NCBI GenBank assembly: GCA_965219095.1
Contig: CBDCMT010000001.1
Span: 832,001 to 896,000 of the forward strand
Length of the DNA stretch: 64,000 nt
Direction: 5' to 3'
Source: Bdellovibrionales bacterium
GTDB lineage: Bacteria; Bdellovibrionota; Bdellovibrionia; Bdellovibrionales; UBA1609
In this document: positions 54,393 to 64,000 of the stretch, one piece after another
Position numbering within the stretch: position 1 is the first letter of the stretch
Layout: every line of letters starts with the position of its first letter
Notes under the pieces: model-generated
What the model saw: the letters and a program-made list of their open reading frames with translations, nothing else
What the model was told of the DNA's origin: nothing
The model's database searches: none
Position numbers and translations under genes: made by a program

Positions 54393-55429
54393 ACCCGAGT
54401 TTCGACTTTTTTCAGGGCTAAAGGCTAGCTGATATCAACAAACACCTCAGACCTTTGTAAGATTTTCTTGAAGAAGCAACTTACAAGGAAAAACACCTTG
54501 AGAGTTGCAAAAAACATACAAGGAGGTCTAAGATGTTTAATTCTAATTATATCATATCAATTTATGTTCTTGTCGATGATTTTTTAACCCCTCTCATACA
54601 GCAGCATCCAGAACTAGTTTCCAAAAATAAAAGAGGTTTTTCTTGTGCTATGTCTCCCAGCGAAATTATCACTCTTTGCTTACTTTTCCAAAGTTCTGGC
54701 TTTAGGAATTTTAAAGCCTTTTATCAGTTTGCAGAAGTCTATCTTAAACCTTATTTTCCTAAAATGTTGTCTTACTCCCGATTTGTGAACATCAAAAAAG
54801 ACATGGCTTTTTTGATGTTTCTTTTCTCGACAAGCCTTATGAGTAAAACCACCGGCATATCATTTATTGATTCCACATCGATTTTTCTTCAAAAATAAAA
54901 GAATAGGACGAAATAAAGTGTTCTAAAAGTTAGCTAAAAAGAGGCAAAAGTAGTATGGGCTGGTTCTTCGGATTTAAACTCCATATTGTTATCAATCACC
55001 TCGGAGAACTTTTAAGTTTTACCTTAACTCCGAGAAATGTAGATGATCGAAAGCCTGTTATAGGTTTGTGTAAAGGGCTGGTGGGGAAACTCTTTGGAGA
55101 CAAAGGTTATATTTCATCAGACCTTTTCAAAAAGCTTTTAAAAAAGGGAGTTAAGCTTATTACAAACGTCAAATTAAATATGAAGAATAAATTGATTCCC
55201 TTATTTGACAAGTTGATGTTGAAAAAACGTTCTGTTGTGGAAACAGTGATTGGAGTGTTAAAAGGAGAGTTTCATCTTGAGCATTCTCGCCATCGTAGCC
55301 CACAAAACTTTGTCATCAATCTTTTAGGTACTCTCATCTCCTATTGTTTAAAACCTAAAAAACCCTCCATTCAACTTAAAACTCAAGAACAGGGGCCTCT
55401 GAGCAATATATAAAAGTCGAAACTCGGGT
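54393..55429 (+). mobile_element. IS982-family IS, full length, transposase pseudogene (54533-55413)
   Basis: 18-bp TIR ACCCGAGTTTCGACTTTT; TATTA flanks; FIDST, GWFFGFKLH, GDKGY. Confidence 0.93.
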
Positions 55430-55467
55430 TATTAATAGCATCCCCTTAGCATCCCCTTGTGATCCTA

Positions 55468-55878
55468 GGGTGTGTCCTCATTTACCTAGACCTTTTTCAA
55501 GACCTTAGGCGTGTTGAATATTTATAAAGATTGTAAAAAGCTCATAACAAAGGGAGGTATTATGTTAAGAAAAGTTTTAACAGATTCTATGTGGAAGGAT
55601 CTGGAAGCTATTATAAGAGAGAAAGGCTGTTATCATTCAGCAAACAATAGAAATGTTATGGAAGCAATTTTATGGAAATTACGCACAGGCAGTCCGTGGC
55701 GTGATATTCCTGAACAGTTCTGTCCTTGGAAGAGAGCATATAATCGCTTTAATAGGTGGGTACAAAAAGGGTTATGGAATGATTTTTTTTTACTTTACAA
55801 GAAGAAGTTGATACAGAGTGGGTGTCCATCGACGGAAGTTACGTATCGGTTCATCAGCATGCTAGTGGAGCTCGGCGT
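55468..55878 (+). mobile_element. IS5 (IS427-like) 5' fragment
   Basis: Left TIR plus most of orfA, cut by the MITE. Confidence 0.9.
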
Positions 55879-56272
55879 CCCGACTTCAGCGTTTTCCACT
55901 ACTAAAACTTCATAAAAGTGTGCGAGCTATGTTTAGAACAGAGTTGGGGGGTATTTTTCCAGACAGTGCATTTGTAGTGTCAGAAATCTTTTTTTGAGGT
56001 CTTTTCAAGGCTGGAAATTTCTTTTAACATTTAAATATGTTTGTAAAAAAGATTCCAAGAAAGAATAGTTTTATTTCAGTTCAGATTGTAGAGAACAAGA
56101 GAGTGCAGAATAAAGTCATCCAAAAAACCATTCAACATTTGGGGCAATATACAGTTTTAACCCCTAAAATCATATAAAAATCCTATAAGGCACCGTTTAA
56201 AATGTAGTGATCACGATTTTGCGTAACCACTTGAAATCATTAGATTCTTGAAAAGAAAACGCTGAAGTCGGG
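55879..56272 (+). mobile_element. IS1634-derived MITE (394 bp)
   Basis: 18-bp TIR CCCGACTTCAGCGTTTTC; residual ORF at 56037 MFVKK..VQIVENKR..KVIQKTIQHLG. Confidence 0.85.
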
Positions 56273-56328
56273 AAAAGTCGAAACTCGGGTTATTAATAGC
56301 ATCCCCTTAGCATCCCCTTGTGATCCTA

Positions 56329-56886
56329 GGGTGTGTCCTCATTTACCTAGACCTTTTTCAAGACCTTAGGCGTGTTGAATATTTATAAAGATTGTAAAAA
56401 GCTCATAACAAAGGGAGGTATTATGTTAAGAAAAGTTTTAACAGATTCTATGTGGAAGGATCTGGAAGCTATTATAAGAGAGAAAGGCTGTTATCATTCA
56501 GCAAACAATAGAAATGTTATGGAAGCAATTTTATGGAAATTACGCACAGGCAGTCCGTGGCGTGATATTCCTGAACAGTTCTGTCCTTGGAAGAGAGCAT
56601 ATAATCGCTTTAATAGGTGGGCACAAAAAGGGTTATGGAATGATTTTTTTTTACTTTACAAGAAGAAGTTGATACAGAGTGGGTGTCCATCGACGGAAGT
56701 TACGTATCGGTTCATCAGCATGCTAGTGGAGCTCGGCGTGGAGAAAGTCGTGCTGTGGGAAAATCTAGAGGTGGATCCACAACAAAAATACACATGGCCT
56801 CCGATGCGCATGGAAATCCACTCTGTTTTAAAATCACTGGGGGTGAAGTACACGACAGTCAAGTTGCAGGTGATTTAATTGATGAG
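56329..56886 (+). mobile_element. IS5 (IS427-like) copy truncated in orfB
   Basis: Intact orfA; orfB stops at GDLIDE where an IS3-like end begins. Confidence 0.9.
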
Positions 56887-56929
56887 TGATCTTCCCCCCA
56901 AAAAAGTGGACAGTTTTTATGTTCTTAAA
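56887..56929. mobile_element. IS3-family-like terminal IR remnant
   Basis: TGATCTTCCCCCCAAAAAAGTGGACA resembles IS3 ends (TG..CCC..GTGGACA). Confidence 0.6.
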
Positions 56930-57044
56930 TGTAATAGACGTTATATGATCTGACAGTTACCCTTTCTGGGTTGATAAAAAACTGTCTGTCAGTTTTTTAT
57001 CAACCCAGAAAGGGTAACTGTCAGATCATATAACGTCTATTACA
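56930..57044. repeat. Perfect 55-bp inverted repeat with 5-nt loop; IS481-like TGT..ACA ends
   Basis: 56930-56984 is the exact reverse complement of 56990-57044. Confidence 0.95.
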
Positions 57045-57063
57045 AATAAAACAAATAATTTGG

Positions 57064-58062
57064 TTGGGAGTATGGTCTTTATTTTCTATGACTTCTTTTG
57101 CAGATATTTATACCAATTACAGAACTAAAACAATAAAAGATTTACAGGGTGATAAGTTACAGGACTACAAAAAAGCCTTTGATTGGTTTGAAAAGTCAGC
57201 AAAACAAGGAAATGCAGAAGCTCAGAATAATCTTGGTGTGATGTATGTTAGGGGAGAAGGCGTTTTAAAGGATTACGAAAAAGCCTTTGATTGGTTTGAA
57301 AAGTCAGCAAAACAAGGACTTGCAGAAGCTCAGTATGCTCTTGGTGTGATGTATAGTGAGGAAAAAGGCGTTTTACAGGACTACAAAAAAGCCTTTGATT
57401 GGTTTGAAAAGTCAGCAAAACAAGGAAATGCAGAAGCTCAGAATAATCTTGGTGTGATGTATTATAAGGGAGAAGGCGTTTTACAGGACTACAAAAAAGC
57501 CTTTGATTGGTTTGAAAAGTCAGCAGAACAAGGATTTGTAGAAGCTCAGAATAATCTTGGTGTGATGTATAGTGAGGAAAAAGGCATTTTACAGGACTAC
57601 ATCAACAAGGCTTATAAATGGCTTATTTTATCATATGAGGGAAAAGGCGTTTTACAGGATTACGAAAAAGCCTTTGATTGGTATGAAAAGTCAGCAGAAC
57701 AAGGAAATGCAGAAGCTCAGTATAATCTTGGTGTGATGTATTATGAGGGAAAAGGCGTTTTACAGGACTACAAAAAAGCCTTTGATTGGTATGAAAAGTC
57801 AGCAAAACAAGGATTTGCAGAAGCTCAGTATGATCTTGGTATGATGTATACTAAGGGAAAAGGCGTTTTAAAGAATTACCTCACAGCTTATGCATGGCTT
57901 ATTTTATCAAAAGCTCAAGCACATGGCAAATTAGAAGCGATTGTAAGCGAATCATTATCTATACTAGAAAATAAAATGACTTCCTCGCAAATTGCAAGAG
58001 CTCAAAAGCTAGCAAATCAATTTAAAGCTGAGAAAACCATTTTAGAGGAACCTGTGAATTAA
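57064..58062 (+). CDS. Sel1-repeat protein; native start apparently lost
   Basis: 36-aa units DYKKAFDWFEKSAKQGNAEAQNNLGVMY; 108-bp DNA tandem repeats from 57157. Confidence 0.92.
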   Translation: MGVWSLFSMTSFADIYTNYRTKTIKDLQGDKLQDYKKAFDWFEKSAKQGNAEAQNNLGVMYVRGEGVLKDYEKAFDWFEKSAKQGLAEAQYALGVMYSEEKGVLQDYKKAFDWFEKSAKQGNAEAQNNLGVMYYKGEGVLQDYKKAFDWFEKSAEQGFVEAQNNLGVMYSEEKGILQDYINKAYKWLILSYEGKGVLQDYEKAFDWYEKSAEQGNAEAQYNLGVMYYEGKGVLQDYKKAFDWYEKSAKQGFAEAQYDLGMMYTKGKGVLKNYLTAYAWLILSKAQAHGKLEAIVSESLSILENKMTSSQIARAQKLANQFKAEKTILEEPVN

Positions 58063-59323: not shown

Positions 59324-60994
59324 TTGTTAATGGCAACTAAGAAGAAAACTGTCAAAAAAAAGATCCAAAAATCTATAAAGAAAAAACAAACTCTTGAAGA
59401 TATTGAAAAAAAGCTTTGGCTTATGGCAGATAAGTTTCGAGTCAATATGGACGTTACTGAATATAAACATGTTGTTTTAGGACTTATATTTCTTAAATAT
59501 TTATCAGACGATTTTGATAAATTTCGCAAAAATTTAAGAAAACAATTCAAAGATCCAAAGCACGAAAACTTTTATAAAAACGCTACTAAAAATGGCATTG
59601 AGCAGGAACTAGAAAATAAAGATTACTATAAATCTCAAAATATTTTTTGGGTTCCTGTAGAAGCGAGGTGGTTTGGAAATACTGTAACGGGAGACCAAGG
59701 ACTCCAAGATGACGCTGAACAAGCTTATATAGGGAAAAGAATTGATAATGCTATGGCAGTTCTTGAAAAGGAAAACTCAAAACTTAAAAAAGTTTTGCCG
59801 AAGGATTTTGCAAGACAACAATCCAATGTACGCTTAGGAGAGCTTGTGAATCTTATTTCCACTATTGGCTTTAACGACACTGAACGTCCCTCAAGAGACA
59901 TTTTCACTCATGTTTATGAATATTTTCTGAGTCAATTTGCTTTTCAAGAAGGAAAAAAGGGAGGACAATTCTACACACCTAAGTCTGTAGTAAATTTGGT
60001 TGTAGAATGCTTAGAACCCTACAAGGGAAGAATCTACGACCCTGCTATGGGTTCAGGAGGCTTTTTTGTCTCAAGAAATCGTTTCATTAAAATGTACAGC
60101 GATCAAAAACACTTCCAAAAAACAAAACAAAATATCTCCTTCTATGGTCAGGAATCAAATCCAACAACTTGGAGGCTCGTTGCCATGAACATGGCTATTC
60201 GAGGAATAGACTTTAATTTTGGAAAAGAGCCAGCCGATACTTTTCATAAAAATCAGCACCCTGACTTAAAAGCAGACTTTATTATGACAAGTCCTCCTTT
60301 TAATATCAGTAATTGGGGTAGAGATAAACTCATTAAAGATAGACGTTGGAAGTACGGTATTCCGCCAAAAAATAATGCTAACTTTGCTTGGATTCAGCAT
60401 GTGATCGATCATCTTTCCCCCAGAGGATATGTCGGAATTGTTTTGGCCAATGGTTCGATGTCATCAGATATAAACAATGAAGGAATGATTAGAAAAAAAC
60501 TCCTTGAGTCTGATCTTGTAGATTGCATGATAGCATTCCCTGGGCAACTTTTTTTAAACACTCAAATTCCAGCTTGTATTTGGATTTTAGCTAAAGATAA
60601 GTCTGGAAAAGATGGGAAACGAAAAAGAAAAAATGAAGTGCTTTTTATTGATGCTAGAAATACAGGAGAGATGATTAACAGAACCCAAAGAGCCTTTTCT
60701 GATAATGAGATTCAGAAAATAGCTGGTATTTATCATTCTTGGAGAAATAAAGGTAAAAAATATGCAGATATAAAAGGGTTTTGCAAGTCTTCGGTTTTAG
60801 AAGAAATTAAATCTAACAATTATGTATTGACTCCCGGAAAGTATGTGGAGATAGACATAACTGAAGGTGATGTTCTTTCTTTTCATAAAAAAATGAATCA
60901 ACTCACAAAGAGATTAAAAGATGAGTTTGCCAAATCAGAGAAGCTAGAAAAAGAAATCAAAAAAAATCTATCAAGTATTGGGTTTGAAGTATAA
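59324..60994 (+). CDS. hsdM: Type I R-M methyltransferase subunit with atypical SPPF motif IV
   Basis: EYKHVVLGLIFLKY, GQFYTP, YDPAMGSGG, YGQE, TSPPFN, NANFAWIQH. Confidence 0.93.
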   Translation: MLMATKKKTVKKKIQKSIKKKQTLEDIEKKLWLMADKFRVNMDVTEYKHVVLGLIFLKYLSDDFDKFRKNLRKQFKDPKHENFYKNATKNGIEQELENKDYYKSQNIFWVPVEARWFGNTVTGDQGLQDDAEQAYIGKRIDNAMAVLEKENSKLKKVLPKDFARQQSNVRLGELVNLISTIGFNDTERPSRDIFTHVYEYFLSQFAFQEGKKGGQFYTPKSVVNLVVECLEPYKGRIYDPAMGSGGFFVSRNRFIKMYSDQKHFQKTKQNISFYGQESNPTTWRLVAMNMAIRGIDFNFGKEPADTFHKNQHPDLKADFIMTSPPFNISNWGRDKLIKDRRWKYGIPPKNNANFAWIQHVIDHLSPRGYVGIVLANGSMSSDINNEGMIRKKLLESDLVDCMIAFPGQLFLNTQIPACIWILAKDKSGKDGKRKRKNEVLFIDARNTGEMINRTQRAFSDNEIQKIAGIYHSWRNKGKKYADIKGFCKSSVLEEIKSNNYVLTPGKYVEIDITEGDVLSFHKKMNQLTKRLKDEFAKSEKLEKEIKKNLSSIGFEV

Positions 60995-61005
60995 GAAGTG
61001 CAGAA

Positions 61006-61422
61006 ATGAAAATAAACCTTTCACCGCTAGAAAAAACAATTCGATCTCTTGAGAGTTCACTGTTAGTTTATGATAAATATGAAAATACAGAGGATAAAGA
61101 ACTCAAAGTTTCTTTAAAAGAAAGTGTCATTAAATCTTTTGAGATGTGTTATGAAATGTCTCGAAGCTTAATGGATCGTTATTTGAAAGAGTATACAGAC
61201 GAAAAAGTTGATCAAATGACAATTCATGATATTTTTAGACATGGAGAAAAAAATGGAATTCTTTCCAGTGCAGAAATTTGGTTTGACTACAGGAAAAAAC
61301 GAAATCAAACAAGCCATGTTTATGATATCAATATAGCCGAGGAAGTTTTCCTTACAGCCAGGAATTTTTTAGAGGATGTTCGATTTTTATTTAAAAAATT
61401 AGAGGAAAAAATTGAATCTTGA
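61006..61422 (+). CDS. HEPN-domain protein (HI0074 / nucleotidyltransferase substrate-binding family)
   Basis: VIKSFEMCYE and RNQTSHVY (RX4HXY). Confidence 0.88.
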   Translation: MKINLSPLEKTIRSLESSLLVYDKYENTEDKELKVSLKESVIKSFEMCYEMSRSLMDRYLKEYTDEKVDQMTIHDIFRHGEKNGILSSAEIWFDYRKKRNQTSHVYDINIAEEVFLTARNFLEDVRFLFKKLEEKIES

Positions 61423-63037
61423 TCTTGCCCCAGCCTACGAAGAGGTCGTCAAAAAAATTTTTAAAGAGCATATTCCTAATGACGAGGTATGGGCTTTTGG
61501 CTCTAGAGTGAGGTGGATGGCAAAGGATAACTCTGATCTTGATCTTGTGATTGTTTCAAGAAAAAAAACTCCATCTAAAACTCTAACTCTTTTAAAATTA
61601 GACTTTGAAAACTCAGATCTTCCCATTAAGGTGGATATTCTGGACTGGAAAAGCATTTCTAAAGAGTTTCAGAAAATTATCAAGGAGGAGTATGTTATTT
61701 TCCAAGAAAAGAAAATGAATTTTAATTTTAGGTCCTGGGAAAAGTTTAAACTAAGTGAAATAACTACCTTTTTAAACGCAAAGAAAGTTCCTTTAAGCGG
61801 TTTAAAGAGAAAAACAAAAAAAGGAAAATATAGGTATTATGGAGTTTCTGGAGTTGTTGATTATATTGATGATTATACTTTTGACGGCAAATACTTTTTG
61901 ATCTCGAAAGACGGTGAGAATTTGAAGACTAGAAAAACGCCAATTGCATTCGTAGTTGAAGGTAAATATGGAATAAATGATCATGTTCATATATTAGATG
62001 AGAAAAAAGAAGGCATTCTAGACTATCTTGAAAATTATTTTAGATATTTAGATATTTCACCTTATATAACTGGAGCAGTCCAACCTAAATTAAACAAAAA
62101 ATCTCTTGAAAAAATCAAAATACTACTTCCTAAGAGAGATGATCGACTTAAAATTAATAAAGTTGCGAACAATTTTAAGCTTAAAATAGAAATAAATAAT
62201 AAAATAAATAATATTCTTGAATCTTTAGCACAAACAATTTTCAAATCTTGGTTTATTGATTTCGACCCCGTCTATGCCAAAAAGCTGGCATTCGACTCTG
62301 GTTTGTCAAAAAAACAAGCTGAACGTGTAGCTATAGCTATTATCTCTGGGGTTTGTAACCCTAAAAAGTTTGTTGAAGATTTCAAGAAAATGGATCATCT
62401 TTTATCTCAAAAGCTATCAAAAATGAACAAGAAAAAACAAAAAGAACTAGCTTATATGGCTTCTTTATTTCCAGGTGAGTTTGAAGATAGTGATTTAGGA
62501 GAGATTCCCAAAGGGTTTAATGTTTGCAGGATAGATCAAATACTCGAATTAGCCTATGGGAAATCTTTAAAAAAATCAAATCGTGTAGAAGGATCTTATC
62601 CTGTTTATAATTCAGAAGGACGCAGTGGTGTTCATAATGTTTATTCTGTTAAGGGGCCTGGAATTATTTTGGGAAGAAAAGGAACTACTGGTAGCCTGTA
62701 TTGGGAGGATAATAATTTCTTTCCTGTAGATACTACTTTTTTTATAAAACCTAGAAAATCATATAAACTTACTTTTATTTTTTATCTTATGCAAACTTTA
62801 GGGCTAGAAAAGATGAATACAAATGCCTTAACTTTAAATTTTAATAGAAACAATGTCTACAAACTTAAGTTTGTAGAGTTTCCTAGAGAAATAAGAATTG
62901 TATATGAAAACTTAGTTGCTTCCATAAGAAATCTTATGTTTAATAATTTAAAAGAGGTTGAGGAAATAGAGAAGTTAAGAGACACACTTCTTCCGAGATT
63001 ACTGGAAGGTAAGATAGGTTTATCAGACATACAGTGA
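61412..63037 (+). CDS. hsdS: MNT nucleotidyltransferase fused to a Type I specificity subunit
   Basis: aa 1-100: FGSRVRWMAKDNSDLD (GSX10DXD); then TRD1, LESLAQTIFKSWFIDF, LGEIPKG, TRD2, LRDTLLPRLL. Confidence 0.92.
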   Translation: MNLDLAPAYEEVVKKIFKEHIPNDEVWAFGSRVRWMAKDNSDLDLVIVSRKKTPSKTLTLLKLDFENSDLPIKVDILDWKSISKEFQKIIKEEYVIFQEKKMNFNFRSWEKFKLSEITTFLNAKKVPLSGLKRKTKKGKYRYYGVSGVVDYIDDYTFDGKYFLISKDGENLKTRKTPIAFVVEGKYGINDHVHILDEKKEGILDYLENYFRYLDISPYITGAVQPKLNKKSLEKIKILLPKRDDRLKINKVANNFKLKIEINNKINNILESLAQTIFKSWFIDFDPVYAKKLAFDSGLSKKQAERVAIAIISGVCNPKKFVEDFKKMDHLLSQKLSKMNKKKQKELAYMASLFPGEFEDSDLGEIPKGFNVCRIDQILELAYGKSLKKSNRVEGSYPVYNSEGRSGVHNVYSVKGPGIILGRKGTTGSLYWEDNNFFPVDTTFFIKPRKSYKLTFIFYLMQTLGLEKMNTNALTLNFNRNNVYKLKFVEFPREIRIVYENLVASIRNLMFNNLKEVEEIEKLRDTLLPRLLEGKIGLSDIQ

Positions 63038-63291
63038 TTGTAAGTTAAAAATTTATACGATTGACCAATAGAGAAAAGGATAAGCTTTAAGAGACAACAC
63101 TCAATCGTTTTAATAAATTGTTATTCTAGAAGGCGTTAGAAATTAACAGAACAGACATAAATGCCTATGATACATAGCAACGAATGAAGCTTCTTTGCAA
63201 TTCTATAGTAGACTAAAAGCAGTGTAAGTAAAAAGGAGGACAGATTATGGTAAAACAAATCACCTAAATTCCCGACAAAAAATATACACTA

Positions 63292-64000
63292 GTGTTCTGA
63301 CCAGTAAATTTTTTCACAATTTTCAAGCCTTTAATCCAGGTCATTTTATTAAATTATTTTGCCTCCTCAAAAGAATAAAAGTGAAATGCTTAGAGTTATA
63401 CCAATTCCAAAAGTTAATTCTACATTTTCATGTATAAGTTTGATTTTTACTTTTAGAAATTTATAACTTTTAAGTACGGGTAAAGAGTGTATCAAATTCA
63501 TTGGAAAGATATGATTTTCTAATGTTTATATACAATTTAGTTTACAGGCTCTTACAGGCTCGTCTCATTTTTTATAATGGAACTTTTCTCTGGCTGATTT
63601 TCTTGAAAAATTCCATTTTATTATAATCTTCCGTCTGTTCATAATATTCACCCAAGCCTTGGTTCTTTTTCTTAAAGTTTCTATGTCAGGTATTCTTGAT
63701 TTTCCTAAACATTGACGAGAGTACATATTGATTGCAATTTCTGCTTGATTTAACCAACTTCCATGACTCGGAGTATAATGAACCTCAAAGCGAGACCATA
63801 GATGCAAACCTCGCTCTTTTCCATAAAAATCAGTAAGACTTTTTTTTCTATGAGTGTTCAAATTATCCATAACTAGAACAATCTTCTTGGAATCAGAATA
63901 ATGTCTCTCAACAGAAGATAAAAACTTAGCAAAATCCGGACCTGTCCTTCTCTCTGTTACCTTATTCATATAAAAACCTCTCTTAGGCTCCACAGCACAG
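63292..64000 (-). mobile_element. IS630-A copy, 3' part (continues beyond window)
   Basis: Reverse complement of ~5253-5961; CTAG site. Confidence 0.95.

Follow-up and report, generated by a model that had tools for sequence, protein, structure and literature searches.

A type VII antitoxin fused to the HsdS specificity subunit of Type I restriction-modification operons: a possible maintenance lock

The DNA analyzed here, referred to as the window, is a stretch of 64,000 nucleotides from a Bdellovibrionales bacterium (assembly GCA_965219095.1, contig CBDCMT010000001.1, positions 832,001 to 896,000). It carries a Type I restriction-modification (R-M) operon in which a HEPN toxin candidate lies between hsdM and hsdS, and in which an MNT antitoxin candidate is the N-terminal part of the HsdS specificity subunit (MNT::HsdS). 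Class I HepT/MntA pairs of the HI0074/HI0073 subfamily appear to have settled repeatedly between hsdM and hsdS, with the antitoxin becoming the N-terminal domain of HsdS. Our preferred reading, to which we give a probability of roughly 0.45, is that such a locus is a toxin-antitoxin (TA) module of type VII whose antitoxin supply is tied to HsdS, making it a maintenance lock on the operon and possibly a fail-safe in infection.

The gene layout reported in a preliminary description of this DNA was reproduced. The HEPN gene begins 11 bp after hsdM, and its 3' end overlaps by 11 bp the start of a single frame (61412-63037) that has a TTG start behind GAGG, 541 codons and no internal stop. Residues 13-100 of the fusion matched Polbeta/NTP_transf_2, with the GSX10DXD motif at G30 S31 and D42 x D44, and were followed by two Methylase_S stretches (Pfam, NCBIfam), in agreement with the earlier account of an intact MNT ahead of an HsdS with two target recognition domains (TRDs). 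The HEPN motif RX4HXY (RNQTSHVY) was also found as described, at R99-NQTS-H104-V-Y106; both TA motifs are intact in the window copy. The two TRDs and two helical spacers of a Type I HsdS were present in the domain matches and in the structural model, and the hsdM product contained the HsdM_N and N6_Mtase domains (Pfam), with motif I as DPAMGSGG and motif IV as SPPF. A promoter and terminator scan gave results at chance level.

An AlphaFold2 model of the fusion, with a mean predicted local distance difference test score (pLDDT) of 92 and a predicted template modeling (pTM) score of 0.77, showed the MNT as a compact unit, joined by a linker of five low-confidence residues to an HsdS that is complete with both TRDs. 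The MNT part matched the HI0073 structure 1no5 with a TM score of 0.95 and a root-mean-square deviation of 1.0. Coordinates are given in Table 1.

Table 1. Features of the locus, in window positions.
Feature	Positions	Strand	Remarks
hsdM, Type I methyltransferase subunit	59330..60994	+	554 aa from ATG; in-frame TTG at 59324
HEPN toxin candidate, HI0074/PF08780 family	61006..61422	+	138 aa; RX4HXY at R99-H104-Y106
MNT domain (MntA-type, HI0073-like), fusion residues 1-102	61412..61717	+	GSX10DXD intact
Short linker, fusion residues 103-107	61718..61732	+	only stretch of at least 3 residues with pLDDT <50
HsdS: TRD1, coiled-coil spacer, TRD2, spacer	61733..63037	+	in frame with MNT
Multicopy transposase-like repeat, presumably of IS630 type	63289..64000	-	occupies the hsdR place of intact relatives; about ten near-identical genome copies

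The HEPN protein matched PF08780 (NTase_sub_bind) at E 3e-24 and scored above the cut-off of TIGR01987 (HI0074), and structures of the HI0074/HI0073 type were the best PDB matches by sequence and by fold. With RX4HXY in a PF08780 HEPN and GSX10DXD in an adjoining PF01909 MNT, the pair is a Class I HepT/MntA (type VII TA) pair, putatively toxin and antitoxin, by the sequence definition in the accessible part of PMC7641770, which bears out the HepT/MntA assignment made previously. The same composition, with a short MNT beside the HEPN, is found in the HepT/MntA systems of that paper, in HI0074/HI0073 (1jog, 1no5) and in the HEPN-MNT pair of L. pneumophila (PMC11586414; 8xdj, 8xeh). In this family, as described in the portion of PMC7641770 available, MNT AMPylates the Tyr of RX4HXY and thereby silences the HEPN RNase. 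The motif Tyr was invariant in 16 of 16 aligned HEPN sequences, all of them picked from fused loci. For the L. pneumophila pair, which is the closest assayed relative, the accessible text of PMC11586414 reports that the R and H mutants were still active and that Q44 and E47 are catalytic; because those mutants were active, RX4H by itself is no proof of RNase activity in the HI0074 subfamily. In the window HEPN, E46 is kept and a Lys (K43) takes the place of Q44, the metal ligand of the assayed relative. Since K-x-F-E was present in 18 of the 138 motif-bearing HEPN-like open reading frames counted, the Lys is, on this count, a natural variant.

The preliminary description had proposed a search for proteins joining NTP_transf to Methylase_S; in similarity searches, the fusion was common. 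Methylase_S was present in 47 of 52 long proteins bearing the window's MNT type, and in 115 of the 120 listed long proteins (query included) with a second MNT type, which came from another locus in the same genome and is 31% identical to the window MNT. An N-terminal MNT was fused at the same point in 53 of the best 120 homologues. Of 429 proteins retrieved, 262 were full-length fusions, and GSX10DXD was kept in every one of these; the queries that found them by similarity themselves bore the motif. Among the 150 best cluster representatives for the window MNT, 102 were joined to TRDs, a fused count that variable TRDs inflate, 25 had other tails (many of them broken TRD starts) and 23 were solo proteins. 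Judged by these comparisons, the fusion is a family feature, both widespread and recurrent. An artefact of assembly or sequencing, or a single read-through in a decaying genome, is highly improbable as its source; although this genome is rich in insertion sequence (IS) copies and broken genes, the artefact reading is refuted at the family level by the homologue fusions, by a complete plasmid of a cultured strain (pZMOB01) and by the 262 motif-keeping proteins. Also against it, PADLOC model PDLC03138 (Specificity_I) covers the MNT at positions 2-100, but its label is that of a specificity subunit only and the TA goes unrecognized. Other partners of MNT were the C-terminus of an HsdR, a domain resembling helicases, a PilX-like protein and a signal peptidase (P0222, P0256, P0121, P0151/P0154/P0155, P0276); these are probably deletions or read-through. 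Six genomes of the window's own phylum (L173-L178) had a conserved HEPN followed by a protein of 338-349 aa that contains MNT and a stretch rich in Cys, His and Trp. Two of these proteins were scanned, and both had an SLT (lytic transglycosylase) domain as well. MNT is thus tethered in a second way.

The gene order was conserved as well. Outside the window's own genome, a HEPN gene lay upstream in all 20 fused loci having upstream DNA; the adjoining HEPN carried RX4HXY in 19 of these, and the remaining locus had an intact copy one gene further up. Nine of 79 metagenome loci, the ranking of which favors fused forms, were fused, with HEPN directly before in 8 of 8 with upstream DNA and hsdR downstream in 8 of 9. 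In whole-genome samples, all 11 embedded loci were fused: seven hsdM-HEPN-MNT-hsdS loci from other genomes among 400 sampled from the own phylum, where part of the 189 HEPN matches was read, and four from a second phylum (301 genomes), where every one of 67 HEPN matches was read and these four lay in Type I operons. The fusion hosts were EcoAI-like, EcoR124-like and the window's own Type I family. Plasmid pZMOB01 of Zymomonas mobilis ATCC 10988, a harmless strain in culture, carries a complete hsdM-HEPN-MNT::hsdS-hsdR operon, and a cognate hsdR was found in most intact relatives. The fusion was found in none of 65 hsdS-like loci on viral contigs, and the HEPN profile matched in none of the 299 genomes scored from one further phylum (two more unscored). 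Deletion of hsdSp in Z. mobilis ZM4 (PMC8432527) was considered as a natural test and ruled out, as the gene order in the accessible text is R-M-x-S and no ZM4-labelled record was among 29 MNT matches. In loci L168 and L169, two and three HEPN genes, respectively, were stacked between hsdM and MNT::hsdS; one was set apart by an hsdM fragment and some were decayed. These stacks are toxin turnover under a fixed antitoxin.

A 147-row MNT tree was built from loci, 23 of them fused; it implies 9 changes in the fused state, of which 3 are forced by strong branches. Of the 147 rows, 68 went into an approximately unbiased (AU) test, for which 5 long-branch rows had been removed and 45 unfused rows retained; a single clade of fused MNTs was rejected (p-AU 7e-5). 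The trees were quick or FastTree trees, and with 98 columns in the MNT alignment, gains and later splits are inseparable. For the presence of the TA, a 40-row HsdM tree implies 10 changes, of which 9 are forced. Because of these 10 changes and the repeated changes of the fused state, the TA cassette, as far as such trees can tell, comes and goes, and the fusion arose or was undone several times. The conservation and recurrence of the fusion, with both motifs retained in nearly every case, argue for selection and for an addiction or back-up role.

Alternatively, the pair could be a passenger: a mobile TA pair would land in an insertion hotspot between hsdM and hsdS, the stop would be lost as both ends tolerate fusion, and recombination would spread the cassette with no functional link. 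We regard this as unlikely, although several observations fit it. HEPN loci lay outside Type I operons in 63 of 67 cases in one phylum and in 27 of 28 in 40 relatives, and most HI0074 pairs are free-standing, including the pair closest to that of the window, which shares 60% identity in each of its two proteins. The scatter of TA presence on the HsdM tree, the joining of MNT to SLT domains and other downstream proteins, the HEPN turnover in L168 and L169 and the survival of MNT when hsdS decays could all be explained in the same way. However, neutral read-through predicts many split loci, whereas the embedded loci of the whole-genome samples were fused without exception, with several origins and in three R-M families, and Methylase_S predominated among the long proteins of both MNT types.

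Across the fused family, the linker was 4 to 39 residues long and was without Met in 167 of 228 scorable fusions. Because most linkers have no Met, HsdS would mostly be produced only as the fusion, and every antitoxin would be an HsdS and every HsdS would carry an antitoxin. TRD1 was <35% identical in 304 of 353 pairs whose MNTs were at least 80% identical, from which we infer that the fused HsdS still exchanges specificity, with TRDs swapping beneath the MNT. A maintenance lock could then work as follows. By its sequence, the operon produces HsdM, HEPN and MNT::HsdS from coupled frames, and MNT would move AMP onto Tyr106 and silence the HEPN RNase, as the family chemistry and intact motifs suggest. 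The HsdS part would remain a specificity subunit with exchangeable TRDs, and antitoxin supply would track HsdS synthesis, assembly and turnover. Should HsdS be lost, silenced or degraded, new HEPN would stay unmodified and growth would arrest; the fail-safe would act via protein abundance, with no allosteric sensor.

Several points weigh against the maintenance lock. The preliminary description held that a stop or frameshift between MNT and HsdS in homologues would speak against the fusion; hundreds of homologues are fused at the same point, but in Acetobacter, where 23 records matched, the three plasmid loci that were read have the same gene order with a stop after MNT. The pair also occurs alone on two other Zymomonas plasmids, and these cases, with the free-standing nearest pair of the window, speak against an obligatory fusion. 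Split loci were possibly also missed in the own phylum, given the partial reading of its HEPN matches. A junction Met was retained in 61 of 228 fusions (GTG/TTG starts not scored), and forms truncated or deleted downstream of MNT exist, also in the window's own genome. Since co-location alone would already make the operon addictive, a benefit of the fusion itself can only be inferred. Finally, a stop 3' of MNT spares the antitoxin, and the lock would thus give HsdS function no protection.

A more active role is possible but doubtful, namely that MNT::HsdS is a widespread, convergently evolved guard in which the tethered MNT would report the state of the M2S1 complex. Phage attack on M2S1, with Ocr, ArdA or Stp-like proteins blocking or removing MNT, would stop toxin silencing; unmodified HEPN would build up and the infection would be aborted, by analogy with PrrC, which serves EcoprrI in this way. 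PrrC in EcoprrI (Type IC), as presented in the accessible parts of PMC3874165 and PMC3710099, is a precedent in that a HEPN RNase gene is embedded in a Type I R-M operon. It differs in being an ABC-ATPase-HEPN protein kept latent through the complex, whereas the 138-aa HEPN here is solo, with no ABC-ATPase fusion, is putatively silenced by covalent AMPylation and is linked via its antitoxin. The guard also gains from the convergent fusion onto a subunit bound by DNA mimics, Ocr-bound Type I structures being among the structure matches, and from PDB chains named 'Cmr1-MntA' (9z7q, 9z7v, 9z7x; 438 aa), in which, by molecule name only, MntA is joined to a defense-complex subunit; the scaffold there is CRISPR type III-B and not Type I R-M, and no paper on these chains was found. 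Against the guard, the linker is of low confidence in the model, variable in length and beside a freely swapped TRD, so that a conserved surface between MNT and TRD is lacking; the AMP mark is covalent, and release would require fresh toxin or an eraser, of which none was seen, no search aimed at one having been made; and split orthologues exist. A predicted complex of HsdM with MNT and two HEPN scored 0.00, which is informative neither way. Because the tether is short and flexible and the TRDs swap beneath it, specific sensing of anti-restriction proteins is not supported. Of the earlier proposal that the tether couples RNase activation to the M-S complex as a guard or an addiction device, the addiction or back-up role is favored by the conserved, recurrent fusion with its motifs kept; coupling to the M-S state is disfavored by the linker, the TRD exchange, the split orthologues, the MNTs on unrelated proteins and the TA outliving R-M.

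The window's own copy is less complete than those of its relatives. No cognate hsdR was present in the locus, and the genome's HSDR_N matches lay elsewhere; in the 94% complete genome, tblastn for HsdR matched only a 30% identical HsdR of another operon. Motif IV of HsdM is SPPF in the window assembly and NPPF in all 59 HsdM proteins from other genomes with a readable motif, and the window HsdM departs at 12 of 167 well-conserved columns, whereas 30 relatives depart at 0-22 of them, with 4 as the median. The sequencing runs listed were four DNA runs from a single study, with none of RNA. Because of the missing cognate hsdR and the SPPF in place of NPPF, the copy is probably a decaying, restriction-dead relic in which the TA half outlasted the R-M half. 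Two further HEPN-MNT::hsdS loci in the same genome carry the second MNT type, and both are damaged. At C1:175225-178272, the HsdM motif is NPPL, HEPN is without the Arg of RX4H and HsdS is shortened to 363 aa; at C2:530943-533493, HEPN is split by a transposase, and the MNT frame continues through the first residues of HsdS before passing into a transposase frame. A 97% identical partial duplicate of the 3' half of the window hsdS with downstream DNA lies at C2:2191502-2192652, and a fragment of a related hsdM at C2:554546-555106. Upstream of the operon (window 54533-58062) are a Sel1-repeat gene of 332 aa and transposase frames that are broken.

The MNT::HsdS arrangement is apparently new to the literature and joins two known kinds of system. 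In HepT/MntA systems, as far as the accessible texts describe them, the pair is free-standing, whereas here an hsd operon encodes the antitoxin as the N-terminal part of an HsdS with two TRDs. FhepTA (PMC13000451) is likewise a type VII module that a gene fusion has changed, but its MNT is joined to the cognate toxin, and the available main text does not contain the words restriction, HsdS or specificity. A full-text search for the fusion or the guard idea, with subscription papers and most supplements outside its reach, returned no relevant paper. In their accessible portions, a BREX survey names MNT solely in fusions with HEPN, the 2013 HEPN survey notes clustering of HEPN with R-M operons and not the MNT::HsdS fusion, and the 2009 TA survey does not describe the fusion. 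Nor is it described in a review of Type I systems, where the word 'nucleotidyltransferase' does not occur.

The available text of PMC7641770 leaves open the cellular trigger of HEPN/MNT toxins, and the repeatedly evolved HsdS tether makes one candidate trigger directly testable. The guard, if true, would together with the 'Cmr1-MntA' chains suggest a general principle: immune complexes would carry tethered type VII antitoxins that monitor their integrity. To our knowledge, Type I operons are usually held not to be addictive. The present arrangement would either give R-M a further back-up besides PrrC, the second one and with a different chemistry, or show how Type I operons gain a lock. Hundreds of proteins named 'restriction endonuclease subunit S' would hide an antitoxin, and deletion of hsdS for better transformation could therefore unmask a toxin.

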